DNA from: Longimicrobiales bacterium
Lineage (GTDB): Bacteria; Gemmatimonadota; Gemmatimonadetes; Longimicrobiales; Gaopeijiaceae
DNA length: 64,000 nucleotides
Direction: 5' to 3'
Assembly (NCBI GenBank): GCA_965208935.1
Contig: CBDBPR010000003.1
Span: 91,877-155,876, forward strand
How positions within the stretch are numbered: the stretch's first letter is position 1; each line of letters starts with the position of its first letter. Positions 1 through 48,187 of this stretch are shown in pieces. Both the position numbers and the translations under genes were made by a program. A model generated the notes under the pieces. That model was given only the letters and a program-made list of their open reading frames with translations. It had not been told where the DNA came from and searched no databases.

Positions 1-118
1 CCAGGGACTCCATTACACTCCCGGTCGCCATGTTCGGTGTTTTTGGTGCGGCGAGTTGGCGCGATTCTTGCTATATTGCGTGTCCTTCACCGGCTTTGGA
101 CAGAAAGTGGACAACGCA

Positions 119-3100
119 ATGCAACCCGGTCGGGCGACAAGGCCGCCGCTTCGGCGAGGCGGTTCGCGGTTGGCCATCCTGCTTGGCATCGTGTTGCCGG
201 CGCTTTCCTGCCATGACGACGCGCCGGAGCCGTTGAGCCCGTTCACGGAGACGGCTCCCTCGGCGCAAGCGAGTCTCACGGAGCCTGACCGAGCCACGCT
301 TGTGGAGTTCTATCGTGCGACCGGCGGCGATGACTGGAAGAACAACGGCGGCTGGCTCTCGGACGACCCGATCGGCACATGGCATGGCGTGAGGGTGGAG
401 GGCGGCCGGGTGGTGCGGCTTGACCTCAGGGACAACAACCTGAGGGGGCGCCTTCCGAAGATCGTTGCCGAACTGGCCGGCCTTCGCGTTCTGAGTCTGA
501 GCAGCGGGTCGTCCGGGAGCCCGAACAGGAACAGGCTGTGGGGCCGGATTCCGCCCGAGTGGGGCGATCTCTCCGAATTGCGGGAGTTGCGGCTGGGACT
601 GAACCTTCTTTCCGGCACCATTCCCACCGAACTGAAGCGGCTGTCGCGCCTGGAAGTCCTTGGGTTGGGGTTCGCGGGCGTTGAGGGTCCGCTGCCCGCG
701 TGGCTGGGCGAACTGACGGAGCTTTACGAACTGGGTTTGTCGGGGAACTACTTCGACAGCCCGATACCGCCCGAACTCGGTAACCTGCGCAATCTGAGAA
801 CGCTGGATCTGTCCGGAGCCGAGGTCTGGGGGCCGATACCGCCGGAGCTCGGCAACCTGTCGAAGCTCGGATACCTGTCCCTCAGCGACAACCATTTCTC
901 TGGCTCGATCCCGTCAGAGTTGGGGAAACTCGGCCGTCTCGGCAGGCTCTTCCTGTCGAGATCGAATCTGAGCGGCGCGATTCCTGCCGAGCTGGGGAAC
1001 CTGACGGACCTCACGACTCTTTGGCTCGACGACAACGACCTGACCGGGCCGATCCCTCCGGCGCTGGCCGATCTGGCGGAACTGGAGGATCTGTTTCTGT
1101 CGGGCAACCGGTTGAGCGGAAGCCTGCCACCCGAGATCGGCGGACTGTCGAAGCTGGAGCGGCTCTGGCTGTCGGGCAACGGGCTCGAAGGCGGCGTTCC
1201 ACCCGAGTGGGGAGGGCTTTCGAGCCTCCGCGAGCTGTTGCTGGGACGGAACCCTGATCTGGGCGGAGCGCTGCCGCGCGAGTTGACGCGTCTGGACCTG
1301 AACTGGCTGGATACGGACGCTTCGGGACTGTGTGCCCCCAAGGACCCCGAGTTCGCGGACTGGTTGGGCCGTATCGCGATTCAGGCGGCGGAGCCGTGCG
1401 GACAGGGCGACCTCGATGCCTATCTCATCCAGGCGACACAGTCCCGGAGCGGTCTGGTTCCGCTTGTTGCCGGCCGGAAGGCGCTGTTGCGGGCGTTCGT
1501 GACGGCGGCGGACGCCGTCGAGCGCTTCCCGGACGTGCGGGCGCACTTCTATCTGAACGGCGCGCCGGCACACGTCCTCGACATTCCCGGGAAGCCGGGT
1601 CCGGTTCCGGGCGAGGTGGACGAGGGCGATGCCGCGATATCCGTCAACGCGATGGTTCCGGGGTGGGTGATTCAGCCGGGCCTGGAGATGGTGATCGAGG
1701 TCGATCCGAACGGGGAGGTGGCCGACAGCGTCGACATGGCGCGCCGGATTCCGGGCGAGGGCCGGATCGAGGTGGACGTTACCGAAATGCCGGAGATGGG
1801 GTTGACGGTGATTCCGTGGTTGTGGCCGAAGGATCCCGAGGAGGAGATCCTGGACCTCATGCGGGGCATCTCGGCTGAGTCGGAGGTGTTCCACGCCACG
1901 CGGACGCTCCTGCCCGTCGGCGAGGTCGGCCTGGCGGTTCACGAACCGGTGTACACGACGACGAACTCCGGTTTTGAGATTCCCTACGAGGTGCAGGCGC
2001 TCCGGGCCATCGAGGGCGGGTCGGGGTACTACATGGCTCTCACGGCACAGGTGGACCGGGACCGTGGCGTCGCCGGCGTGGCCCTGCGCAGCGGGTGGTC
2101 CGCCTGGTCGGTGTTCAACGGCGGCGTCATCGCGCACGAACTCGGCCACAACCTGAGTCTGGGCCACGCGCCGTGCGGCACGTCGGGCGACCCGCGCTAC
2201 CCGCAGCCGGACGGGTCGGTCGGCACGTTCGGATTCGACCTCGATACCGGAATGGAGTCGGTCGTCCATCCCAACACGAAGGACTTCATGAGCTACTGCG
2301 GCCCGACGTGGGTCGGGGCGTGGCACTTCCGGGAGATGACCCGTCACCGCGTGAGGCGGGAAGTCTCGCCGACCGGGGGCGAGCGCGCGGCTCAATCGAA
2401 GTCGCTGCTCCTGTGGGGAGGGCGGGACGACAGGGACGGGCTCTTCCTGAAACCGGCGTTCTGGGTGGACGCGCCTTTGACGCCGCCGCCCCCCGGCGAC
2501 CGGTACGAGTTGAAGGGATGGTCGGCGACGGGCGAGCAACTGTTCTCCGTTCGCTTCGGCATGGTCGAGTCCGAGGACGGGGACGGGCGCGCGGGGTTCG
2601 CCTTCGCGCTCCCCGCGCGTGCGGAGTGGGGCGATCTGGCGGAAGTCGCCCTGAGCGGGCCGGGCGCGGCGGCGTTCTTGAACCGCGACACCGACCGGCC
2701 GTCGGTCATTCTGCGGGACGCCGCGACCGGTCGGGTGCGGGCGATGTTCATCGACGCCCCCGTCGCCGCCATGGCCGCGAGCGCCGATGGCGGGGCTTAC
2801 TTCTCGGGCGGTGCCCGCCTCGTGGCCGCGCGCAGTCATGGACTGCCGGACCCCGCCGACTGGGAACCCACGGGCGCGGGCGCAAGTTCGGGTGCGAGCG
2901 ACTCCGGCACCGTGGCTTCGATCACGGTAACGCCCGCTGCGGCGACAGTGGCCCTGGGGGATACGGTACGCCTCGTGGCGACCGCGCTGGACGCCGACAG
3001 CTCGGAGGTGGATGGGGTCGAATTCGAGTGGACTTCCGGCGACACGCTGGTGTTTTTGGTGGACCAAGCGGGGCTGGTCACGGCGCTCCGTGCGGGTTCA

Positions 3101-5770
3101 ACCGTCGTCACTGCGACTGCGGGCGGGGTGTCCGGACGGGCCGAGGTTCGGGCGGAGCAGCGCGCCGTGTCCGTGGTGTTGACCCCCGGGGCCGCAACGG
3201 TCGCGGCGGGCGACACGGTGCGCTTCACGGCGACGGCGCTTGATGTCAACGGCTCGCCCATGGCGAACGTCGACTTCGAGTGGGCCGCGAGTGACACCTC
3301 GGTGGCCTGGGCCGGTCGTTCCGGGCTTGCCTTTGGCTGGAGGGCCGGAAGCGCCACCGTATCGGTTCGCACCGACCGCGGCGTATCCGCTTCCGCCGAC
3401 ATGACGGTCGAGGGGGAGTTGGAGGTGGAACGGTTCGCGTTGACGCGCCTGTACGCTCGCCTGCGGGGGTGGGACTGGCGCGAAAGCGGCAACTGGCTCA
3501 CGGACGCCCCGCTCGCGGATTGGCACGGAGTCACCGTGAACAGGGGAACCGGCAAGGTCACCGGCCTCGATCTTGGAGCGAACAACCTGAGGGGGCAGTT
3601 GGGTCCCGAACTGGGAGCGCTTGGCGAACTGGAAAGACTCGGACTCGGATACAACACCATCCGGGGCAGGATACCGCCGGAGATCTGGCGGCTCGACCGG
3701 CTTTGGGTGTTGGATCTTGGTGGGCTGGGCCTCACCGGCCCGCTATCGCCCGAGATCGGGAACCTCTCCCGGCTCATCCAGCTGAACTTGGGCGGCAATG
3801 CGCTGTCAGGCGTCATTCCGCCGACCATCGGCGAACTGACGAACCTGATCAGCCTGAGTCTCTCGGACAACGTGTTCGAGGGACCGATACCGGCGGAAAT
3901 CCTGAACATCACGGATCTTGCGTCGCTTGATCTGGCCGGCAACCGGTTGACCGGAGAAATCCCGGCGGGGCTGGGTGAGCTCGCGAACCTCCAGTCACTC
4001 GATCTTCGGCGCAACCGGTTGACCGGAGAACTGCCGCCAAGCCTCGGCGGGCTCGAACTGCTTCACGAGCTTCGCGTCGCCGACAACGACCTGACGGGCG
4101 AACTGCCACCCGAATTCGGCGGGCTTCGGGCGATCGACCGGATCGACCTGGCGGGCAATGCCATGTTGCAGGGCGCCCTGCCCTCGGCCTGGGTCGAAAG
4201 GAACCAGAGGATGGACGTGAAGGCCGCGGGCACGGAGTTGTGCGCTCCCCGGCACGCGGGTGTTCTGGACTGGCTGCGCATGAACGACCTGACGTTCATT
4301 CCGGTCTGTGCCGGGGGAGAAGCGGCGTTCGCGTATCTCGTGCAGGCCGTCCAGTCGCGGCAGTACCCGACGCCGATCGTCGCGGGCGAGGACGCGCTGC
4401 TGAGGGTCTTCATGTCCACCGACGGCCACGCGGACATGCCGCCGGTCAGGGCCACCTTCCACGCGGGCGGCCGGATCATGCACACGGCCGACATCCCGGC
4501 GGGCCAGGCGCGCATTCCGCCGGAGATCGACGAGGGGGACCTGTCGAAGTCGGCCAACGCGGTCGTTCCGGGAGAAGTCGTGCAACCCGGCCTCGAAATG
4601 GTGATCGAGATCGATCCGGACGGCACCTTGGACACAGGGCTGGGCATCCCCGGCCGGATTCCGGCCGAGGGCCGGGCACCGGTCGAAGTGCGCGCGATGC
4701 CGGTGCTCGATCTCACGGTGATCCCCTTTCTGCAGGCGGACAACCCGGACTCCACATTGCTTGAGCGCGCGCACGACTTGGAAGCCGACACCAGCGTATT
4801 TCGTGCGGCGGACCGGCTCCTGCCGGTCGGCGAACTCGCAGTGACGGTGCATGAGCCCGTGTTGACCAACTCCGGCGACTTCGCCTGGGATCTGTTGCAT
4901 GAGACGGAGTTGATTCGGGTCGTCGAGGGCGGCGACGGCTACTACATGGGCCTCTTCGGCCACATCCGCTCGGGCGTCATCGGACAGGCTTCCTACATCG
5001 GGGGCAGGAGCCTCGTGTCCCTCGCCCACGCCGGCACGGTCGCTCACGAACTCGGACACGCGATGAGCCTTCTGCATACGCCGTGCGGCGTCCGGGGGGA
5101 CGACCCGGACTATCCTTGGCGGGACGGCTCGACGGGCTCGTGGGGATACGACTTCGCCACCGGGACCCTGGTGCCGCCGGAAGCCACAGACCTCATGGGG
5201 TACTGCGGCCGGCAGTGGATCAGCGGGTATCATTTCTCGAATGCGCTCGACCACCGCCTTCGCACCGAGGCGGCGGCACGACCGCCCGCGGTGGCGGAAC
5301 AGGCGCTCATCGTCTGGGGAGGCGTCGATGCCGCCGGGCAGCCCTTCCTGAAGCCCGCGTTCGCCGTCGAGGCGCCGCCCAGGCTGCCCGCACCGGGCGG
5401 CGACCACCGGTTGACCGTCCTCGCGGCCGGGGGCGAGACGCTGTTCTCGATCAGCTTCGACATGCCCGAGACCGCGCATCTGGACGGGGCGTCTTCGTTC
5501 GTCTTCGCCATCCCAGCGCCCGGGGGTTGGGCCGGAAACATCGAACGCATCACGCTCGACGGACCCGGCGGGACCGCGGCCTTGGACCCGGAGACCAGCG
5601 CGCCCGCCATCATCGTCCGGGATCCGACCGATGGGCGCGTGCTCGGCCTCCTCACCGACCCGCCGCCCAACCTGCTGCCCTCCGCGGATGGCCGGGGGAA
5701 CTCGCCCCTCTCGGGCTTCGATATCGTGGTAAGCAGCGGGCTGCCCGAGGTCCCGCCTGAGCGACGTTGA
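119..5770 (+). CDS. Giant lipoprotein with duplicated architecture: plant-type LRR array + metzincin-like Zn-metalloprotease module, two Big_2 Ig-like domains, then a second LRR + metalloprotease module
   Basis: ORF 56..5770. The ATG at 119 gives MQPGRATRPPLRRGGSRLAILLGIVLPALSC, a signal peptide with a lipobox. 24-aa LRRs (LxxLxLxxNxLxGxIPxELGxL) follow LRRNT-like caps (LVEFYRATGGDDWKNNGGW and LTRLYARLRGWDWRESGNW). Zinc motifs are HELGHNLSLGH (nt 2135-2167) and HELGHAMSLLH (nt 5045-5077). Two ITVTPAAATVALGDTVRL-type Big_2 repeats lie at nt ~2910-3410. Confidence 0.85.
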   Translation: MQPGRATRPPLRRGGSRLAILLGIVLPALSCHDDAPEPLSPFTETAPSAQASLTEPDRATLVEFYRATGGDDWKNNGGWLSDDPIGTWHGVRVEGGRVVRLDLRDNNLRGRLPKIVAELAGLRVLSLSSGSSGSPNRNRLWGRIPPEWGDLSELRELRLGLNLLSGTIPTELKRLSRLEVLGLGFAGVEGPLPAWLGELTELYELGLSGNYFDSPIPPELGNLRNLRTLDLSGAEVWGPIPPELGNLSKLGYLSLSDNHFSGSIPSELGKLGRLGRLFLSRSNLSGAIPAELGNLTDLTTLWLDDNDLTGPIPPALADLAELEDLFLSGNRLSGSLPPEIGGLSKLERLWLSGNGLEGGVPPEWGGLSSLRELLLGRNPDLGGALPRELTRLDLNWLDTDASGLCAPKDPEFADWLGRIAIQAAEPCGQGDLDAYLIQATQSRSGLVPLVAGRKALLRAFVTAADAVERFPDVRAHFYLNGAPAHVLDIPGKPGPVPGEVDEGDAAISVNAMVPGWVIQPGLEMVIEVDPNGEVADSVDMARRIPGEGRIEVDVTEMPEMGLTVIPWLWPKDPEEEILDLMRGISAESEVFHATRTLLPVGEVGLAVHEPVYTTTNSGFEIPYEVQALRAIEGGSGYYMALTAQVDRDRGVAGVALRSGWSAWSVFNGGVIAHELGHNLSLGHAPCGTSGDPRYPQPDGSVGTFGFDLDTGMESVVHPNTKDFMSYCGPTWVGAWHFREMTRHRVRREVSPTGGERAAQSKSLLLWGGRDDRDGLFLKPAFWVDAPLTPPPPGDRYELKGWSATGEQLFSVRFGMVESEDGDGRAGFAFALPARAEWGDLAEVALSGPGAAAFLNRDTDRPSVILRDAATGRVRAMFIDAPVAAMAASADGGAYFSGGARLVAARSHGLPDPADWEPTGAGASSGASDSGTVASITVTPAAATVALGDTVRLVATALDADSSEVDGVEFEWTSGDTLVFLVDQAGLVTALRAGSTVVTATAGGVSGRAEVRAEQRAVSVVLTPGAATVAAGDTVRFTATALDVNGSPMANVDFEWAASDTSVAWAGRSGLAFGWRAGSATVSVRTDRGVSASADMTVEGELEVERFALTRLYARLRGWDWRESGNWLTDAPLADWHGVTVNRGTGKVTGLDLGANNLRGQLGPELGALGELERLGLGYNTIRGRIPPEIWRLDRLWVLDLGGLGLTGPLSPEIGNLSRLIQLNLGGNALSGVIPPTIGELTNLISLSLSDNVFEGPIPAEILNITDLASLDLAGNRLTGEIPAGLGELANLQSLDLRRNRLTGELPPSLGGLELLHELRVADNDLTGELPPEFGGLRAIDRIDLAGNAMLQGALPSAWVERNQRMDVKAAGTELCAPRHAGVLDWLRMNDLTFIPVCAGGEAAFAYLVQAVQSRQYPTPIVAGEDALLRVFMSTDGHADMPPVRATFHAGGRIMHTADIPAGQARIPPEIDEGDLSKSANAVVPGEVVQPGLEMVIEIDPDGTLDTGLGIPGRIPAEGRAPVEVRAMPVLDLTVIPFLQADNPDSTLLERAHDLEADTSVFRAADRLLPVGELAVTVHEPVLTNSGDFAWDLLHETELIRVVEGGDGYYMGLFGHIRSGVIGQASYIGGRSLVSLAHAGTVAHELGHAMSLLHTPCGVRGDDPDYPWRDGSTGSWGYDFATGTLVPPEATDLMGYCGRQWISGYHFSNALDHRLRTEAAARPPAVAEQALIVWGGVDAAGQPFLKPAFAVEAPPRLPAPGGDHRLTVLAAGGETLFSISFDMPETAHLDGASSFVFAIPAPGGWAGNIERITLDGPGGTAALDPETSAPAIIVRDPTDGRVLGLLTDPPPNLLPSADGRGNSPLSGFDIVVSSGLPEVPPERR

Positions 5771-6205: not shown

Positions 6206-6853
6206 ATGGGCAGCTTGCATGATGCCGTCATGCAGTACGTGGAACAGGAAATGAAGAAGGACCCCGGCGTGAAGAACGCCGCCCTGTTCGCCGGTGCCCG
6301 CGAGATCGACGAGTTGATCGGGGAACTCAGGCCGCAACAGTTCCACGCCAGGTATCGGCTGCCGGTGACGCGGCGGCTGGCGGAACAGCGACGGCCCGCA
6401 CGGCAAGCGAAGACGGCCCCGGCACCTGACCCCGCGCCAGCGTCATTGGGAGATGGTGCCGCCGTCATGGAGTACGTGGAGCGGACGCTCGAAGCGAACC
6501 CCGGAATCGCGAACGCGGACCTGTTAGCGGGTGCCCGCGAGATCGACCCCTCGGTCGGGCAACTCTCGGCCCGGCAGTTCCACGCGAGATACCCCCTCCA
6601 AGTCAAGGCGCGGCTCGCAAGGGCCGCCGCGCCCGAGCCCAAGCCGCCGCCGGAACCGGAGGTCCCAACGGCTGAGGAGCCCACCGCGCCGGACCTATCG
6701 TCGGCGGGAGACGGCGACCCGCTCGCGGTTCGCCGTCTGCTGCTCGATCTGGCCAAGGAACTCGCGAGCGCGGAGAGCAAGGCGGAAGTGATCGAGGTCA
6801 TGGCCCGGCTGGACGACTACGTGGCCGAGATCATGGAGGCGGCAGGGGACTGA
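6206..6853 (+). CDS. Hypothetical protein with an internal tandem duplication of a ~58-aa unit
   Basis: ATG at 6206 is preceded by GAAAGGA. Repeat 1 (nt ~6218-6391, AVMQYVEQEMKKDPGVKNAALFAGAREIDELIGELRPQQFHARYRLPV) and repeat 2 (nt ~6455-6628, AVMEYVERTLEANPGIANADLLAGAREIDPSVGQLSARQFHARYPLQV) are separated by a Pro/Ala linker. I recognise no family. Confidence 0.55.
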   Translation: MGSLHDAVMQYVEQEMKKDPGVKNAALFAGAREIDELIGELRPQQFHARYRLPVTRRLAEQRRPARQAKTAPAPDPAPASLGDGAAVMEYVERTLEANPGIANADLLAGAREIDPSVGQLSARQFHARYPLQVKARLARAAAPEPKPPPEPEVPTAEEPTAPDLSSAGDGDPLAVRRLLLDLAKELASAESKAEVIEVMARLDDYVAEIMEAAGD

Positions 6854-6890: not shown

Positions 6891-7190
6891 CTTACGACCG
6901 TACTGGCGCGTGAAATCGACATGGAGGGTCGATTCACACTTTGGCCCTCCGGCGATTCACACCGGCCCTGCCGACTATCCGCTGGCGCGGCAACGTCTTG
7001 CGGCCCGGCCGTCCGGTGGCCCGTGGCACACGAGCGGTTCGGGCCGTGGTGGGAGCGACCCGCCTCGCCGAGGGCTCGGTACGGGCTCGGGCCGAGGTGG
7101 AAACTCACACCTCGCCCCCCGCCCTCCACGGGTCGCTCCCACACCATCGGTCCCTGCGGGAAGGCCCGTCAAGCGCCGCTTCGAGGCGCT
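6891..7190 (+). repeat. R-element copy R1 (structured ~300-nt repeat, + orientation)
   Basis: Aligns to 42571-42872 along its length. The closing stem GGGAGCGACC (7051-7060) / GGTCGCTCCC (7131-7140) encloses hairpins GCCGAGGGCTCGGT and GAGGTGGAAACTCACACCTC. It also has the conserved block TCCCTGCGGGAAGGCC (7151-7166) and a terminal hairpin AGCGCCGCTTCGAGGCGCT. Confidence 0.75.
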
Positions 7191-7338
7191 GGACCACACA
7201 CTCGCCGTACAACCCCTCCGGTCCAACGCGACCGGGCGTTCCATTCGCTTCTGTACTACGTTGAACCCGACGTTTCGGTTTCGCCGTTTCGGCCTCGACG
7301 GGCCGATTCACTCTCAACCGGGGGATCCGGCCATCGCG

Positions 7339-7773
7339 ATGAGAAAGCTGTTGTTGCTGGGTCTGGCGCTCTTGCCCGCGCAGGTCGAGGCGCAGGAGAG
7401 GCCCGGCCGGATGATGCTCGAAGCGGGACTCGTCGGCGGCAGCGGCGACGCCTGCCCGGGAAGGTACGTCGGCATCAAGGGACGGCTCGCCGGGCCGGTG
7501 TCCCTGTACGGCATGGTCGAGACCTACCGCTGTGCCGATTTCGCGGGCTCCGCCAACCGCATCGGAACCTCCGTCCGGCTCGGACGCGACCGCTGGTTCG
7601 TTCGCCCGGCGATGCGGGCGGGCATCGAGTACGACGGCGGAGACGTTTCGCCGACCGCCGGGGCGAGCCTGACGTTCGGACGGCGCTACGGCGCGCGCTT
7701 CATCCTCCACCTCGGTGAGGCCTCCGGGGGCACCCTGACGCTCTTCCAGATGGGCGGTTACATCTCGTTCTGA
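7339..7773 (+). CDS. Small secreted beta-barrel-like outer-membrane protein (144 aa)
   Basis: The signal peptide is MRKLLLLGLALLPAQVEAQ. The sequence has alternating Gly/aromatic beta-strand-like segments and a C-terminal ...GGYISF aromatic end. The upstream part of track ORF 6910..7773 is the R1 repeat and is not coding. Confidence 0.6.
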   Translation: MRKLLLLGLALLPAQVEAQERPGRMMLEAGLVGGSGDACPGRYVGIKGRLAGPVSLYGMVETYRCADFAGSANRIGTSVRLGRDRWFVRPAMRAGIEYDGGDVSPTAGASLTFGRRYGARFILHLGEASGGTLTLFQMGGYISF

Positions 7774-7798
7774 GCCCGAGCCGATGCGACCGACGGGG

Positions 7799-8110
7799 GC
7801 TCCGACGTTTCAGCCGGAACCGACCGTCGGAGCGACGCGCCGTTGGCCTTCCCGCACGGGATTGCTGGGCCGTAGCGACCCCCGCGGAGGGTGGGATGGG
7901 CAGTGCACATCCCAACCCTCCTCGATGCCACGACAGGCATCGAAATAGGGGGGTCCTACCGGCATCGGCCCTGAAGGCCGACACGGCATAGGCGCCCCGG
8001 TGGACGGATCGCAAGCCCAACAGCGCCAGCAGCTTGGGGAATCGGTGCTGTGCACGGCCAGGACGCTTTTTCGTGCACAACGACCCCCGCGTCACATGTG
8101 CACCTCTGGA
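7799..8110 (-). repeat. R-element copy R2 (inverted relative to R1)
   Basis: The reverse complement carries the same blocks: GCTGGCGC, closing stem GTAGCGACCCCC (7872-7883) / GGGGGGTCCTAC (7948-7959), hairpins TCGATGCC..GGCATCGA and GGGATG..CATCCC, ATCCCGTGCGGGAAGGCC, and terminal hairpin GCTCCGACG..CGTCGGAGC (7799-7833). Confidence 0.7.
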
Positions 8111-8325
8111 TCGGCATCGGGCGCACCGAAAACTGTCTCCGCGTTACCGCTTCCCGACCGAAGATCGGGGAGCTCCGGCGCGACCGGTAGACGGCGGATT
8201 CCCGGCCCGATTTCGCGGAGGATGCCACGCGCTTCGAGCACTCCGTCAGTCTGGCGGAGAACGCTACTCTCCGCGATACTTCGTTGCGCAGATCGTGCAG
8301 TCCATCAATCGAGAGGAATCGAACG

Positions 8326-9486
8326 ATGGTACGCACGAAACGAAGTCGGCGCTCGTACGGCGCTGGCGAATGGGGCCGGAACCGGGTCCGGGTGTTCCCG
8401 GACGCCAAGACTGGCCTGTATCAGTTGGAGTGGCGCGAGAACGGGCGCAGGCTCACCCGGTCGCTCAAGCACCGCGACTGGCGGCGCGCGAAGCGGCAGG
8501 CGGACCAGTTCGCCGCAGGGTTCGTCGGCCCGGAGATCTGGGGCGGGGCGGAAGCCAAGCCCGAGCCGCTCACGCTGGGAAGGCTCTTTGACATCTACGG
8601 TGAGGAGGTGACGCCCACCAAGGGCGCGCACACGCGGGGGCACGACCGGGCCGCCATGCGGATGTTCCTCCGGTTCTTCGGACGGAGCCGCGACCCGGCG
8701 ACCTTGTCTCAACGGGACTGGGATCGCTTCATCCGGGAACGGCGAGCGGGCAGGATCGGACCGAGCGGCAGGCCCGTGTCGGACCGCACGGTCGAATACG
8801 ACCTGAAGTTCCTGATCGCGGTGCTGAATTGGGCGGAGAGGTCGAGGGACGAGCAGGGCCGGTTGTTGCTAGACCGGAACCCGCTCAAGGGTCTCAGGAA
8901 GCCCGCTGAGAAGAACCCGACGCGGGTGGTGCTCGCCGAGGAGGAGTATCGGGCGCTGCTGGAGGTGTCGCGCCGGGTGGACTGGCGGTTCCGAATCGCG
9001 CTGGTGCTCGCGCACGAAACCGGGCACCGCATCGGTGCCATACGCCAGCTTCGGTGGCCTGACATCGACTTCGAGGGTCGGACGATCCGCTGGCGGGCCG
9101 AGCACGACAAGTCGGGCTACGAGCACATCACGCCCGTCACCGCCGAGGCGCTCGACGCGCTGAAGGAGGCGCGGAGCCCGATTCCCTTGGCCGGGGATGC
9201 CCCGGTGCTGCCCGCACCCAGGAATTCCTCGGTCTGCATGGGAGCCGCGTTGGCGCAGGGGTGGTGGGACAGGGCCGAACGGCTTGCGGGTCTGGAGCCC
9301 AAGCCCGGCAGGGGCTGGCACTCGCTGCGGCGGAAGTTCGCCAGCGACCTGATGGACCAGCCGCTGAAGGTGCTCTGCGAGCTGGGCGGCTGGAAGACGG
9401 CGAAGACGGTTCTTCAGTGTTATCAGCGCGCGAATGAGGGACAGCTTCGGACGGCTCTGGAAGCCCGTAGAAGACTCCGCGATTAG
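8326..9486 (+). CDS. Tyrosine recombinase / phage-type integrase (copy 1)
   Basis: ATG at 8326 follows GAGAGGA. Box I is LAHETGHRIGAIRQLRW. Box II is GWHSLRRKFASDL ... GGWKTAKTVLQCY (H-x-x-R and the catalytic Tyr). By eye it is roughly 75-80% identical to the CDS at 45445-46605. Confidence 0.9.
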   Translation: MVRTKRSRRSYGAGEWGRNRVRVFPDAKTGLYQLEWRENGRRLTRSLKHRDWRRAKRQADQFAAGFVGPEIWGGAEAKPEPLTLGRLFDIYGEEVTPTKGAHTRGHDRAAMRMFLRFFGRSRDPATLSQRDWDRFIRERRAGRIGPSGRPVSDRTVEYDLKFLIAVLNWAERSRDEQGRLLLDRNPLKGLRKPAEKNPTRVVLAEEEYRALLEVSRRVDWRFRIALVLAHETGHRIGAIRQLRWPDIDFEGRTIRWRAEHDKSGYEHITPVTAEALDALKEARSPIPLAGDAPVLPAPRNSSVCMGAALAQGWWDRAERLAGLEPKPGRGWHSLRRKFASDLMDQPLKVLCELGGWKTAKTVLQCYQRANEGQLRTALEARRRLRD

Positions 9487-9495
9487 ATCCGCAAT

Positions 9496-9546
9496 CGGCG
9501 GGAGTCAAACGGCTGGAATCCGACCGGCCAATCCCGTAAGTTCAAC
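9496..9546 (+). other. Conserved segment immediately downstream of integrase 1 (paralogous to 46618-46666)
   Basis: GCGGGAGTCAAAC-N19-CCAATCCCGTAAGTTCAA compares with GCGGGAGTCAAAC-N18-CCAATCCCGTAAGCTCAA after integrase 2. CGGGA/TCCCG can pair. Homology ends right after this segment. Confidence 0.5.
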
Positions 9547-9726
9547 CTCCATGAGCAGATGCGAATCCACGACCGACTGCCGGGCCGGCAAGGCGCGACG
9601 AAGGGCCAGTAGCAGCGCTACGGGCCCGAGGAGCAACGCAGAGCGAAGCGGTCCGGCCCGGATGCATCGCCGCTCGAATGCCGGGGGGATTTTGTCCACG
9701 GGCTGCCAGGGGGACGCGCAGCAGGG

Positions 9727-44232: not shown

Positions 44233-45203
44233 TCAGAACATCTTGCGCCGGAGCCGCTCCGACCGCCAAGTGCCCACCCGGTGCAACAGCCCCCGGCCGG
44301 ACTCCCGAAGAGCCCGATTCTGGAGTTCCGCCAGCCGCACGAGCCCGCCCCGGATGTCGCCGCACACCTCTCGGACCAGCCTCTCGTCCCTGCTGCGGAG
44401 AACATCCTTGATCCACTCGATCTCGCGGTCGATCTCCGGGTCGTAGTCGGACGAGCGCAGGCCCCTCGCCCAGTTGCCGAGCACGGTGTCCGCGCGGCTC
44501 GTCTCCTTCGAGCCCCGCCCGACGGCCACGATCTCGATCTTGCGTTCGCGGTCCCGGAGCATCGCCCACAACTCCCGGTGCGCCGCGCCCCAGGCGCGTA
44601 GCCCCCTCGCGGTCTCGTGACCGGGATCGACATGGACGAAGACGGCGCGCTTCGCGTCCAGCGCGACCGGAAGCCCGAGATGAAAGTGCCGCCGGATGTT
44701 CCCGGCCGCGCCCCGGTAGGTCCGCTGGGGCAGAACCCGGCGCTCGATCCCGAGCGCCTCGAACGCGGCGACCTTCTCGGCCTCGGTCGGCAGCCACGGC
44801 AGGCGGGGATGGTCGAGCACGTAGTCGAGTGCCAGCAGCCGTCGCATCAGCACGTCGCGGGAGGTGATCCGGCGACGCCGATGGAACTCCCCGGCTCCGA
44901 GCGCCCGGAACACTCTGCGGGCTTGGATGCGGCACACGCGGCCGATCTTGCGGACGCCGGCCGGGGCCTCCTCGACGGCCAAGCCCTGCGCGACGAGGGA
45001 GTGGACGGCGCGCCGCACCTTCTCCGGGTGGCAACCCAGGAAACTCGTCCACTGCAAGCGGGTGAAGACGCCGCCGTGAAGGCAGGCCAATGCGATCCAC
45101 TCGGCCCGGCGTCCGGTCCAGCCGAACGCCTCCAGAGCTTTCTCGCGTCCCTTGAGATGGGCGATCAGCGCGGCCTCCCGTGGTTGAAGGACCGGGCGCG
45201 CAT
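44233..45203 (-). pseudogene. Frameshifted (or mis-assembled) gene for a winged-helix protein, possibly replication-relaxation-like
   Basis: A strong start (GGAAGGAG + 5 nt + ATG at 45203) opens a 12-codon ORF ending at the TGA at 45165. The long frame (open from 45216 to 44233) has no ATG/GTG before the TTG at 45090, yet reads sensibly upstream (REAALIAHLKGREKALEAFGWTGRRAEWIALACLHGG). The family call is weak (wHTH-like VFTRLQWTSFLG...VRRAVHSLVAQGLAVEE). Confidence 0.45.
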
Positions 45204-45444
45204 GTGGGCTCCTTCCTCACGCTGCGTGTCACTCCCGTTGGAATCGGGAGAGAGCCCTCGGGCCGCGTCAAGCCGCGCCCGCGAGCGGATGTCCCAAGCG
45301 GTCCAGCCGGATCCCGGATGGAGATCGGCCTTCGGCCACAGTCCCTCCGTCGCGTTCCGGGGGTGTCGGCACTGGTCAAGACGCCCCTTCCGGGCGAAGT
45401 TTCGTTCGCGCAGATCGTGCAGTCCGTCAGTCGAGAGGAATCGA

Positions 45445-46605
45445 ATGATGGCACGCACGAGAAGAAGCCGTCGGAGCTACGGCGCCGGCGAGTGGGGCCG
45501 GAACCGCGTGAGGGTATTTCCCGACCCGAAAACCGGCCTGTTCCAGATAGAGTGGCGCGAGAACGGCCGAAGGCTGAGTCGGTCGCTCAAACACCGCGAC
45601 TGGAGGCGCGCGAAGAGGCAGGCGGACGAGTTTGCCGCCGGGTTCATCGACGCGCCGAACGGCAAGGCGGAGGCCAAGCCCGAGCCGCTCACGCTGGACA
45701 AGCTGTTTGAAATCTACGGTGAAGAGGTGACGCCCACGAAGGCGGAGGCGTCCCAGCGGTCCGACCGGGCCGCGACGAGGATGTTCCTCCGGTTCTTCGG
45801 ACGGGACCGGAGTCCCGAGACGCTATCCCAGCGCGATTGGGACCGGTTCATCCGGGCACGTCGCTCGGGCAGGATCGGGCCAAGCGGAAGGCCGGTGTCC
45901 GACCGCACCATCGAGCACGACCTGAAGTTCCTGATCGCCGTGCTCAACTGGGCGTCCAAGTCCCGGGACGAGCGGGGCAAGCTCCTGCTCGCGTCGAATC
46001 CGCTGAGGGGTCTCAGAACGCCCACGGAGAAGAACCCCACGCGGGTGGTGTTGTCCGAGGAGGAGTACCAGGCGCTTCTCGGGGTGTCCCAAGAGGTGGA
46101 CTGGCGCTTCCGCGTCGCGCTCGTGCTCGCCCACGAGACGGGCCACCGAATCGGGGCCATCCGTCACCTTCGATGGTCTGACATCGACCTCGAAGACGGG
46201 GTGGTGCGGTGGCGCGCGGAGCACGAGAAGACCGGATACGAGCACCGGACGCCGGTGACGGCCGAAGCGTTGGCCGCCCTGCACGAGGCGCGGAAGAGGA
46301 GTTCCGGGCATGAGCACGCTCCGGTGCTGCCCGCGCCGACGGATGGCTCCAAGTGCGCCGGCCGGTCGTTGGTGCGAACTTGGTGGTACAGAGCCCAGAC
46401 GCTGGCGGGGCTCGAACCGAAGCGCGGGAGAGGCTGGCACTCGCTGAGGCGGAAGTTCGCTTCCGACCTCATGGATCAGCCGCTCAAGGTGCTCTGCGAG
46501 TTGGGCGGTTGGAAGACCGCCAAGACGGTGCTTGAGTGCTACCAGCGAGCCGACGAGGGACAGCTTCGGAAGGCACTGGACGCCCGCCGGAGACCTCGAA
46601 GCTGA
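45445..46605 (+). CDS. Tyrosine recombinase / phage-type integrase (copy 2)
   Basis: ATGATG at 45445 follows GAGAGGA. LAHETGHRIGAIRHLRW, GWHSLRRKFASDL and GGWKTAKTVLECY. The upstream 276 aa of track ORF 44617..46605 are antisense to the 44233-45203 gene and were not used. Confidence 0.9.
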   Translation: MMARTRRSRRSYGAGEWGRNRVRVFPDPKTGLFQIEWRENGRRLSRSLKHRDWRRAKRQADEFAAGFIDAPNGKAEAKPEPLTLDKLFEIYGEEVTPTKAEASQRSDRAATRMFLRFFGRDRSPETLSQRDWDRFIRARRSGRIGPSGRPVSDRTIEHDLKFLIAVLNWASKSRDERGKLLLASNPLRGLRTPTEKNPTRVVLSEEEYQALLGVSQEVDWRFRVALVLAHETGHRIGAIRHLRWSDIDLEDGVVRWRAEHEKTGYEHRTPVTAEALAALHEARKRSSGHEHAPVLPAPTDGSKCAGRSLVRTWWYRAQTLAGLEPKRGRGWHSLRRKFASDLMDQPLKVLCELGGWKTAKTVLECYQRADEGQLRKALDARRRPRS

Positions 46606-46617
46606 GGCTCATGAATC

Positions 46618-46666
46618 AGCGGGAGTCAAACAGCGAGAATCGAGCTTACCAATCCCGTAAGCTCAA
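46618..46666 (+). other. Conserved segment downstream of integrase 2 (paralog of 9496-9546)
   Basis: See the entry for 9496-9546. This copy overlaps the last codons of the convergent DUF222-HNH gene. Confidence 0.5.
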
Positions 46667-47796
46667 GGGAAAACAGGAGATCCGATCTTGAACAACACCG
46701 CCGTAACGTTAGGGTTAGCGGTCCCATTGCCCCGGTGTCCCATCCGGACATGCCGGTGTCCCTGGATTTGCCGCGGAAACGCGGGGGCATCCCCTGCGGT
46801 CGCCCCGCCTGCCTGCTCTTCCGCCTCCCACGCCGCCTCGACCGCCTCCCTGACGGCCGCCTCGATCTCCCAGAGTATCGCCGAGTCCACCAGCCGCGCG
46901 GCCCCGTTGTACATCTCCCCGGGCCCAAGCGGGGGCGGGGGCGGCAGGGGCAGCGTCGGCTCCGGCAGCGGTGGCGCGCTCGCGATCATCCCGCCGCTGC
47001 GCGCGAAGAACACCGCCTGGCCGAGCCGGTCGAGCGCCATCCGGACCCGGCCCTCGTGCACCAGCCGGTGATGCCGCCGGCAGAGCAGCACCGTGTTGGC
47101 CAGACTCGTCTCCCCGCCATCGGCCCAGTGCCGGACATGATGCGCCTCGGTGAACCGGCCCCCGCAGCCCGGGTACCGGCAGCCCCGGTCCCGTTCCTCC
47201 AGCGCCCGGCGAATGTGCGGCGGGATCGTCCGCGTCTTCCGCCCCACGCTGACGACCTTGCCCCCCCGGTGCAGCATCGAGACCAGCGACGCGTCGCACG
47301 CCATGCGCCGCGACGTCTCGGCGCTCACCCGCACCCCGTCCAGTTCCGACCGGCCCCCCTCGACGGCCCGCATCAGCACGGCCCCGGCCTCGGGCTCGAG
47401 CCGCTCCCGCACCATCCGCTCCACCGCCGCGGCCGACCCCTTGTCGGCGTATTCGAGCAGCTTGCCCTCGGTCTCGGGCGTGGCCACCCGGGTGATGGCC
47501 CGCGCCTTCGCGTAGGATAGCTGCCCGGCCTTCATCGCGGCCGAGGTCTTCGGCAGGTCCTCGAGCGCATGCGCGACACGCACGTTCTCACGGCAGGTCG
47601 CGACCGTGCGGCCGGTCCTCCAGGCGAGCCACTCGGCGCAGGAGTCGAAGGTGTCGGCCCACCCCTCGCGGCGGTCGAACTCGGCGACGAGGGTGAGCAT
47701 CTCGTGGGTGGCGATGTTGATCCGGGCGGCGAGTTCGGCGATGCGCTCTCCGAGTTGGACGGTGTTCATGTGATCCTCCAGGTCGAGTTCCGGCAA
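46663..47796 (-). CDS. DUF222 + HNH endonuclease domain protein (REP13E12-like selfish-gene family)
   Basis: N-terminal DUF222-like LAARINIATHEMLTLVAEFDRREGW...GQLSYAKARAI. HNH motif CRYPGCGGRFTEAHHVRHWADGGETSLANTVLLCRRHHRLVHEG. Start is ATG 47796 or 47769. Confidence 0.85.
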   Translation of the reverse strand: MPELDLEDHMNTVQLGERIAELAARINIATHEMLTLVAEFDRREGWADTFDSCAEWLAWRTGRTVATCRENVRVAHALEDLPKTSAAMKAGQLSYAKARAITRVATPETEGKLLEYADKGSAAAVERMVRERLEPEAGAVLMRAVEGGRSELDGVRVSAETSRRMACDASLVSMLHRGGKVVSVGRKTRTIPPHIRRALEERDRGCRYPGCGGRFTEAHHVRHWADGGETSLANTVLLCRRHHRLVHEGRVRMALDRLGQAVFFARSGGMIASAPPLPEPTLPLPPPPPLGPGEMYNGAARLVDSAILWEIEAAVREAVEAAWEAEEQAGGATAGDAPAFPRQIQGHRHVRMGHRGNGTANPNVTAVLFKIGSPVFP

Positions 47797-48187
47797 CGGC
47801 TTATGTGAATCGTGCCTGAAATTTAACTATCGATTTTCGGCCTTCTCTGCGGGCCCAGGACGCGAAAAGTCCGGTCACGACGACGCCGAAGGGTCACCGG
47901 GCGTCGTTCGCCCGCCAGCGGGGCTCCCGCGGCTCCTGGCGGCCATCCCTGCACCGGGTCCCGGACCTCGCCGAAGTCGCCATTTCAGAACCCGTCCATA
48001 GCAGGATCGGCCTGCATATGGACGATTTGGGACAGGGGGGCGGCAAAGGGTGCCCGGGAGAGACAATCCCGGAGTCCGCCGGGGAGAGACATCCGGCGAC
48101 CCGCCGAGGCATGGCGCGCCAGCCCGCCGCCCCCGTCAGCCCCACGTTTCCGCGGCAAATCGCGGGACATCCGCATGCTCGTATGGG
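46739..48187. mobile_element. DUF222-HNH gene bracketed by ~50-bp imperfect inverted repeats
   Basis: 46739-46788 (inside the 3' end of the HNH ORF) is the reverse complement of 48140-48187: GCCCC(C/A)(G)CGTTTCCGCGGCAAATC(CA/GC)GGGACA(C/T)C(G/C)GCATG..CG.ATGGG. Confidence 0.35.

Follow-up and report, generated by a model that had tools for sequence, protein, structure and literature searches.

A structured repeat of about 300 nucleotides (nt) is present in four copies in a 64,000-nt stretch from a Longimicrobiales bacterium (Gemmatimonadota; contig CBDBPR010000003.1, positions 91,877 to 155,876 of the forward strand). The whole stretch is called the window here, and its own numbering is used. 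Copies A and B are on the plus strand, copies C and D are on the minus strand, and their alignment has a mean column identity of 69%. When the whole 64 kb is searched without filters, a covariance model of the 3' domain gives exactly four strong matches (84.7-103.9 bits), one of which is copy C, a sequence outside the seed alignment. The remaining matches score at most 23 bits, and the best of these are the antisense strands of the same four sites. Sequence, alignment, and covariance model thus bear out the positions given in the original prediction, which was made from the letters of the window. Copy D, placed there at 43900-44175, is real, but its 5' end is probably about 45 nt further out, at about 44220, just past the stop codon of a neighbouring gene whose product we name RelX. 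The copies belong to a genuine family of structured DNA elements that is widespread and has not been described before. Its parts in the window are as follows, "word" denoting a short motif repeated within one copy.

6891-7190, plus strand: copy A, full element, type 1, orphan (no RelX gene beside it); 3' domain at 7045-7169, 96.1 bits
6910-6939, plus strand: 5' hairpin of copy A, GTGAAATCGAC/GTCGATTCAC, holding an inverted word and the first word CGATTCACAC (6930-6939)
6953-6962, plus strand: second word CGATTCACAC of copy A, 23 nt after the first
7049-7142, plus strand: closing stem of copy A, 7049-7062 paired with 7129-7142; z = -3.69
7150-7165, plus strand: conserved 3' core of copy A, GTCCCTGCGGGAAGGC, containing the mini-hairpin TCCC-TGC-GGGA
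7172-7190, plus strand: third hairpin of copy A, AGCGCC/GGCGCT, a tail specific to the type 1 subfamily
42571-42872, plus strand: copy B, type 1, orphan; 3' domain at 42726-42849, 103.9 bits, z = -5.38
7799-8110, minus strand: copy C, type 2; 3' domain at 7842-7966, 84.7 bits, z = -5.64; word GTGCAC
43900-44220, minus strand: copy D, type 2; 3' domain at 43930-44057, 100.6 bits, z = -6.17

The closing stem of copy A encloses two hairpins, hairpin A and hairpin B, and the latter holds the third word CTCACAC (7104-7110). Relative to GGGTCGCT, the forward words of copy A are at -198, -175, and -27. Copy B has the word TTCACAC at -196, -173, and -24 and, inverted, at -221. Words are therefore (A)TTCACAC in copies A and B, GTGCAC in copy C, and CGGACA in copy D. 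Copy C has a one-base bulge in its closing stem and no RelX gene beside it, and its 5' end faces the start of a recombinase gene, int1. The 3' core of copy A is a candidate nick or strand-exchange region, and the mini-hairpin in the 3' core covaries, CG changing to UA or GC. The arms originally quoted for hairpins A and B and for the third hairpin are present in the sequence as written. Two details need correction. The block GCTGGCG, described as common to all four copies, is absent from copy B, which has GAAGGTG there, and the 88-92 nt said to be enclosed by the closing stem are the span including both arms, the enclosed part being about 67-71 nt.

All four 3' domains adopt one fold, in which a closing stem surrounds two hairpins and a 4-bp mini-hairpin comes next; compared with dinucleotide shuffles, the z-scores are -3.7 to -6.2. 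Covariation was scored on 115 matches from the family, which make 108 distinct rows. In these rows 94.8% of cells are standard pairs. Both sides of a pair have changed in 152 cells compared with 35.6 in shuffles; none of 500 shuffles reaches 152, and controls in which the partner columns were slid give at most 43 such cells. The covariation comes from the five outermost pairs of the closing stem (AU/GC/CG/UA) and from the mini-hairpin, which alternates TCCC/GGGA with TCCT/AGGA across the family, while the inner closing stem AGCGACCCC is invariant. Compensatory changes are thus still seen when more homologs are added.

The insert of the closing stem is 7-9, 30, 56-73, 78-83, or 92 nt long, with a mode of 67-73 nt. 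Since these lengths fall in every residue modulo 3, the element is not coding, as had been argued from indels in the window; a coding region is ruled out, and the overlapping open reading frames (ORFs) are only spurious. Of 106 copies of the modal length class, 96 form two hairpins within the closing stem (mean z -3.3). These interior hairpins were scored sequence by sequence, as MAFFT columns do not line up across subfamilies. The third hairpin, which follows GGAAGGC, is subfamily-specific. Its arms are present in the window copies as proposed, but as a covarying, family-wide feature it is weakly supported, the family mean folding free energy of -14.45 being near that of shuffles (-13.55; control windows, -12.3). 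Taken together, the data support a selected, non-coding, structured element with real compensatory changes. The earlier failure to place it in a known non-coding RNA family agrees with a scan of the window with Rfam 15, in which no match reaches the gathering threshold and only weak, far-sub-threshold chance matches appear at E up to 10.

An exact-pattern scan with one genome per species gives at least 117 loci, and about 155-165 distinct copies were gathered with a relaxed pattern and the covariance model. The hosts are Gemmatimonadota (Longimicrobiales, Palauibacter, and Gemmatimonadaceae) and Acidobacteriota (Vicinamibacterales, Bryobacterales, Terriglobia, Holophagales, and others). Two proteobacterial metagenome-assembled genomes also carry the element and are probably mis-binned. 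Several copies per genome are common, and OZ242374.1 has seven loci. Minimal versions are found in Vicinamibacterales (loci L015, L028, L037, L043, L071, L075, L082, and L106), in which the closing stem sits on a loop of 7-9 nt (GAGCGACCCCGGTTCCGGGGTCGCTC) and is followed by TTTTTCCCTGCGGGAAGGC. The four of them on which the covariance model was run (L015, L028, L037, and L043) score 51-57 bits. Their 5' regions are not alignable with those of full-length copies, and no RelX homolog was detected beside them. At L052 an IS110-family transposase gene (PF01548/PF02371) abuts the 5' side of the element (-1330 to -103), probably as an incidental insertion.

About half of the copies repeat their own word of 7-8 nt at fixed positions. 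One or two inverted copies are near -247 and -222, and direct copies near -200 and -177, 22-23 nt apart, follow in the 5' half. One to three further words near -27, -40, and -52, 12 nt apart, are inside the closing stem, where they occupy the loop and the 3' arm of hairpin B. The arrays are thus 27-52 nt and 177-250 nt from the 3' arm, and a G-run usually stands before the word. Words differ between otherwise similar elements; examples are ATTCACAC, ATGCGCAC, CATGTGCAC, TGTGGCA, TGTGACA, TGTTCCA, TGTCCCA, GTGCAAC, and TTCAAGT. Being helically spaced and beside a winged-helix gene, they point to protein binding on duplex DNA, and the pattern of element-specific repetition is itself the behaviour of protein-binding sites.

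RelX, the product of that winged-helix gene, is a protein of about 315 amino acids that belongs to no Pfam or NCBIfam family.

44230-45189, minus strand: RelX homolog, winged-helix protein of about 315 amino acids, directly 5' of copy D on the same strand

The distance from the end of this gene to the 3' arm of copy D is 259 nt. The window RelX is 40-59% identical to RelX of other loci (tblastn), and proteins 94-95% identical to it exist in the database. It has no ATG, GTG, or TTG before 45090, though homology starts near 45189, so it may be a pseudogene, be truncated at the N-terminus, or use an unusual start codon. The upstream ORF of 215 amino acids at 6206-6853 is not a RelX relative. The link between gene and element was found from both sides. 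When the search started from the DNA pattern, RelX was directly upstream on the same strand in 37 of the 106 copies with enough flank. When it started from 19 RelX genes taken from metagenomes by protein similarity alone, the element was 255-277 nt past the stop codon in 17. More than 1,000 RelX homologs were retrieved by one query and 2,829 by another, none of them annotated. An AlphaFold model (predicted local distance difference test, pLDDT, 74) begins with a MarR-like winged helix and ends in a C-terminal domain without a match, and a Foldseek search of the PDB with the model returns MarR-like winged helices only (E about 0.03). On this model RelX is predicted to be a DNA-binding protein. 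The topology of the C-terminal domain (alpha-beta-beta-beta-alpha-beta) would be compatible with the PD-(D/E)xK fold but is not diagnostic of it.

The words and the putative DNA-reading part of RelX are hypervariable in parallel. In RelX proteins that are 75-90% identical, the sole hypervariable patch is the recognition helix and wing (about residues 45-78). The helix TDRK[QR]AL goes with the word TGTGGCA in four of five loci (L152, L062, L154, and L155), although RelX of L062 is just 77% identical to that of L010 overall. RelX of L102 is 89% identical to that of L010, yet it has the helix TGRKQVE and the word TGTGACA; L156 has the same pairing. The helix TDSK[RT]AH is found with T[GA]CGGCA in L103 and L157. 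When word identity is compared pairwise with helix identity, just 3 same-word and 10 different-word pairs fall in the informative range. This correspondence across loci is suggestive of a helix that reads its word.

The genes around the element differ between the two phyla. In Acidobacteriota the order is ArdC..VirB2-B3-B4-B9-B10-(unassigned ORF)-B6-B8-RelX-element-T4CP-VirB11, where T4CP is the type IV coupling protein, and VirB6-VirB8-RelX-(about 360 nt)-coupling protein is again the order in six further RelX look-ups. The copies in these operons are in sense orientation, about 50 nt before the start codon of the coupling protein. No Pfam relaxase is found within 10 kb on either side of the element in the conjugation clusters. 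In two of these six, RelX, the element, and type IV secretion system genes are together on contigs of 77,708 bp (L155; ctg353028_15x_c) and 76,727 bp (L156; ctg460590_50x_c). Given the "_c" suffix and near-equal length, each contig may be a conjugative plasmid of about 77 kb, circular and complete. In Gemmatimonadota, including the window, a tyrosine recombinase gene is divergent from RelX or from the element, without secretion genes in the vicinity; the two window loci are separated by 35 kb of ordinary metabolic enzyme genes.

8284-9486, plus strand: tyrosine recombinase int1, divergent from copy C (PF00589, E = 2.9e-17)
45405-46605 (start approximate), plus strand: tyrosine recombinase int2, divergent from RelX; paralog of int1 with about 80% nucleotide identity

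These recombinases are full-length (400 amino acids) and ordinary-integrase-like, and the NCBIfam scores of int1 are far under the Xer and integron-integrase cut-offs. No tRNA or transfer-messenger RNA (tmRNA) target is found in the window, nor any att-like direct repeat longer than 11 nt at the island ends. The window copies would be parts of two small islands that carry a recombinase but lack their own secretion system and would be mobilised in trans. A repetitive extragenic palindromic (REP) or miniature inverted-repeat transposable element (MITE) type of dispersed repeat, named with the original prediction as a family without gene association, was also considered and rejected. The element is tightly linked to RelX, type IV secretion genes, and tyrosine recombinases, a gene association missed in the original prediction; RelX is its constant partner, and the multi-domain 300-nt layout has no terminal inverted repeats. 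The initial placement outside REP families stands on these grounds, yet about 60% of the copies, including A, B, and C of the window, are orphans without an adjacent RelX gene.

At about 21 loci a RelX-linked type 2 copy and a type 1 copy have their 3' ends facing each other with 105-3041 nt between. Two of these convergent pairs are "empty", with about 105 nt between, and the others enclose small variable cargo. Both pairs in the window (A-C and B-D) have cargo, in each case a different outer-membrane-protein gene.

7339-7773, plus strand: cargo of A-C, small secreted protein OMP1, 144 amino acids
43104-43787, plus strand: cargo of B-D, outer-membrane beta-barrel protein OMP2, 227 amino acids (PF13568, E = 2.2e-8)

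The segment A-OMP1-C is collinear with L109 (3156-4417; 78% identity over 1273 nt). In L118 (11514-12027), L148 (4856-5371), and L125 (7447-7897) the OMP gene has the same sense and both flanking elements are inverted. Because the alignments of gene and flanks differ between genomes in this way, the enclosed segment exists in both orientations, which suggests inversion or re-insertion at the elements, although it was not possible to locate the breakpoints of this switch at the core.

On balance we consider it somewhat probable that the element is an oriT-like DNA-processing site of mobile elements (oriT, origin of transfer), or a related relaxosome assembly site, served by RelX. Two properties of such sites are found in it. 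It is close to relaxosome or coupling-protein genes, in the order VirB8-RelX-element-T4CP-VirB11 or in integrase-RelX-element islands, and it has an inverted repeat near a conserved nick-like region, namely the covarying 14-bp stem, the 9-12-nt spacer, and the conserved core. From this arrangement we infer binding of RelX to the words, nicking at the core, and transfer. A RelX multimer would bind the element-specific 7-8-nt words and would be brought in the word-bound state to a module made of an inverted repeat of 14-16 bp, a spacer of 9-12 nt, the mini-hairpin TCCC-NNN-GGGA, and AGGC. A single strand would be cut at this conserved module and passed to the coupling protein encoded directly downstream. 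The stems would be kept because the inverted repeat must form either a cruciform or a hairpin on the single strand that is displaced or transferred. The recognition helix of RelX and the words would diversify jointly, so that each element answers to its own protein alone. The single-stranded DNA fold that had been offered as one of two possibilities in the original prediction fits this explanation, since the transferred strand would carry the hairpins.

Several points weigh against an oriT-like site. As drawn, the nicked strand would bring the coupling-protein gene into the recipient first, which is unusual. The operon copies, being in sense orientation between two genes, are probably also transcribed. 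Most copies (about three-fifths, as above) have no RelX gene beside them. Sequence and profile searches of Pfam, NCBIfam, and the PDB gave no family and no relaxase match for RelX, and tblastn of RelX against 72,556 PLSDB plasmids gave no homolog; RelX may be accessory or regulatory, the relaxase being encoded beyond the 10 kb examined. The match of helix and word rests on about 10 pairs and has an exception in L158, whose helix is as in L152 but whose word is TGGGGCA (one base off). Linkage could also explain the match, because helix codons and words are within about 1 kb of each other.

The core ATCCCTG/C (slash at the putative nick) may resemble the nick consensus of IncP and Ti plasmids, whose nick region consists of an inverted repeat, a spacer of about 8 nt, and YATCCTG/Y. 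The element likewise has an inverted repeat, here with a spacer of 9-12 nt, and its ATCCCTG-C motif is part of the mini-hairpin and has one extra C. No MOBP relaxase is found within 10 kb on either side of the conjugation-operon element, and the IncP nick consensus string was not found in the literature.

Another comparison is with oriT2 of the Enterococcus plasmids pAD1 and pAM373, whose repeats reportedly set specificity and stand beside a large inverted repeat; oriT2 is also said to be located between the relaxase gene and a coupling-protein-like gene. The element resembles pAD1 oriT2 and its relaxase TraX in combining a winged-helix protein with short direct repeats away from the nick region, the binding by RelX being a supposition. 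TraX is a MOBC relaxase with an N-terminal winged helix that binds five direct repeats 70-120 bp from nic (PMC12857230). Unlike TraX/MobC, RelX has no recognised PD-(D/E)xK fold, and no homology between them was found (PLSDB tblastn, Pfam, NCBIfam, PDB). Unlike in oriT2, the words here are also inside the inverted repeat, and the hosts are Acidobacteriota and Gemmatimonadota. Because the homology test fails, the element can be said to work like a MOBC system but not to be a member of it.

Inverted repeats and a high GC content mark the oriTs used by tyrosine-recombinase-like relaxases, and the pIGRK oriT has AGCGA motifs and a G-tract (PMC8152469, PMC6414798). The oriTs of MobK (pIGRK), MpsA (SGI1), and TcpM (pCW3) are at least 125-150 bp long and directly upstream of the tyrosine-recombinase-family gene. 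By description, the element is like them in its closing stem on AGCGAC/GTCGCT, its G-runs before the words, and its type 2 copies abutting a recombinase gene. It is unlike them in that the recombinases here are 400 amino acids long and resemble ordinary integrases, and the operon copies have no recombinase nearby. Integron attC sites share with the element a folded site in which structure is kept over sequence, a variable centre, the vicinity of a tyrosine recombinase, and flanking cargo. In contrast to attC sites (57-141 nt), the element is about 300 nt long with a strongly conserved core sequence, its copies are convergent and not tandem, and its partner is RelX. An attC/IntI system was rejected on these grounds and on a TIGR02249 score of 18 bits against a cut-off of 265. 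An integrase attP with arm-type sites was likewise rejected, as operon copies have no recombinase nearby and the search of the window gave no att repeats. Integration of integrative mobilisable elements (IMEs) into an oriT that belongs to another element has been reported (PMC7563843). Like the streptococcal IME_oriT (PMC7563843), the elements here are on small islands with an integrase and their own DNA-processing module, beside what would be the transfer origin of another element. Such integration could, by analogy, explain the convergent pairs of type 1 and type 2 copies. IME_oriT differ in that they use a Rep_trans relaxase and live in Firmicutes, and no att repeats were found here.

Other explanations were weighed against the same data. 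The element could be a structured non-coding RNA, either cis-regulatory in the RelX-T4CP transcript or a free small RNA, whose fold controls the coupling-protein operon or the cargo. Its stems covary and its folds are significant, the position of operon copies ahead of the coupling-protein start codon would suit it, and a variable-length insert in a conserved stem is typical of structured RNAs. The missing Rfam match speaks against it, and so do several other observations. Folding of the element is equally good on both strands, in the 3' domain it is the opposite strand that is more stable, by 3 kcal/mol on average, and in the closing stem 28 G:T pairs stand against 45 A:C mispairs, which is no wobble excess. 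A scan of the window copies for sigma-70-like promoters and intrinsic terminators found neither. Helically spaced words and a hypervariable DNA-binding helix are not RNA features, and orphan copies and convergent pairs are in unrelated transcriptional contexts. Lack of strand preference is as expected for a DNA site, and we regard an RNA as improbable. Of the selected RNA or single-stranded DNA fold first proposed, the selected structure stands, but the leaning towards RNA finds no support in strand folds or wobbles. It is also quite improbable that the element is a promoter-operator region on which RelX acts as a transcription factor, with words as operators for the coupling-protein and VirB11 genes. 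The MarR-like winged helix of RelX and the helically spaced words upstream of the coupling-protein gene would fit such a region, but a covarying stem of 14-16 bp with 7-92 nt nested in it, together with a core kept from phylum to phylum, goes far beyond what an operator needs. Orphan copies and convergent pairs are not upstream of a conserved gene, and the negative scan just mentioned, made for sigma-70-like promoters, applies here too.

A recombination site of the adjacent tyrosine recombinase, used for attachment, inversion, or cassette capture, with words as arm-type sites and core and stem as crossover, would account for the recombinase beside type 2 copies in the window and at L026, L031, L053, L059, L100, L109, and L118. 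It would also account for the convergent pairs with variable cargo, two of them empty, and for OMP1 cargo in both orientations relative to the flanking elements. We nevertheless hold it to be rather unlikely, as no recombinase gene is found within 4.5-10 kb of the Acidobacteriota operon copies, RelX rather than the recombinase is the constant partner, and no direct repeat longer than 11 nt marks the ends of the window islands. The orientation breakpoints are not placeable at the core, and the recombinase is not an integron integrase by its score. An iteron-type or rolling-circle replication origin, with RelX as initiator, the words as iterons or bind locus, and hairpin and core as nick locus, has in its favour the combination of repeats, hairpin, and adjacent initiator-like winged-helix gene. 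The two RelX contigs of about 77 kb with the "_c" suffix, maybe circular, and the functional overlap of relaxases with rolling-circle initiators (PMC12857230) also speak for it. On the other side, structural comparison of the RelX model with the PDB finds no initiator of the RepA/RepE/Pi or Rep_trans type, the element is inside a secretion operon beside the coupling protein, and many chromosomal copies occur per genome, as in the genome with seven loci named above. Such an origin is very improbable. Beyond the oriT-like site itself, a bolder proposal would be a new class of conjugative DNA-processing system. RelX, a non-HUH winged-helix protein, would itself be the relaxase and would be directed to its own origin by a swappable 7-nt code repeated four to six times. 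Recombination between such origins, or one that involves the tyrosine recombinase next to them, would capture and invert small cargo between convergent copies. This we consider unlikely.

Some other features of the window are apart from the element. A 72-nt segment follows both recombinase stop codons (9493-9564 and 46614-46685; 72% identical; AATC.GCGGGAGTCAAAC...CCAATCCCGTAAG). It could represent an attachment site or what remains of a small-RNA gene; ARAGORN finds no tRNA or tmRNA in it. A DUF222/HNH endonuclease gene (46663-47796, minus strand) stands just past int2, and a 48-nt inverted repeat (46739-46786 and 48140-48187; 83% complementary) has its first arm within this gene and its second just downstream. 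The region also holds GGTGTCCC repeats and looks like a separate small mobile unit. At 56-5770 on the plus strand, a protein of about 1,900 amino acids is encoded with many leucine-rich-type repeats of 72-nt period and an internal duplication of about 2.9 kb that includes a HELGH metalloprotease-like motif (repeat families D4, D5, D9, and D14). The longest inverted repeat of the window (37948-38086 and 40736-40874; 139 nt, 71% complementary, 2.6 kb apart) is within two divergent ORFs (37834-39144, minus strand, and 39855-41039, plus strand), neither with a Pfam match; it probably arose by inverted duplication of a gene.

Acidobacteriota and Gemmatimonadota, two phyla that are abundant in soil and among sponge symbionts, have conjugative elements that are essentially uncharacterised. 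The element and RelX occupy the usual place of relaxase and oriT in widespread type IV secretion clusters. We lean towards the view that the element joins a known class, the transfer or processing origins, and that what is new is its nested architecture, its per-element word code, and its uncharacterised partner. If this is true, the missing origin, and perhaps a missing relaxase family, would be supplied for the mobile elements of these phyla, and the covariance model together with RelX would serve as a searchable marker for integrative and conjugative elements, plasmids, and mobilisable islands. The words and their helices would then be a natural, modular protein-DNA specificity code that prevents cross-talk between related mobile elements. 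The convergent pairs with invertible or variable cargo may be a new route by which surface-protein genes are shuffled in symbionts.

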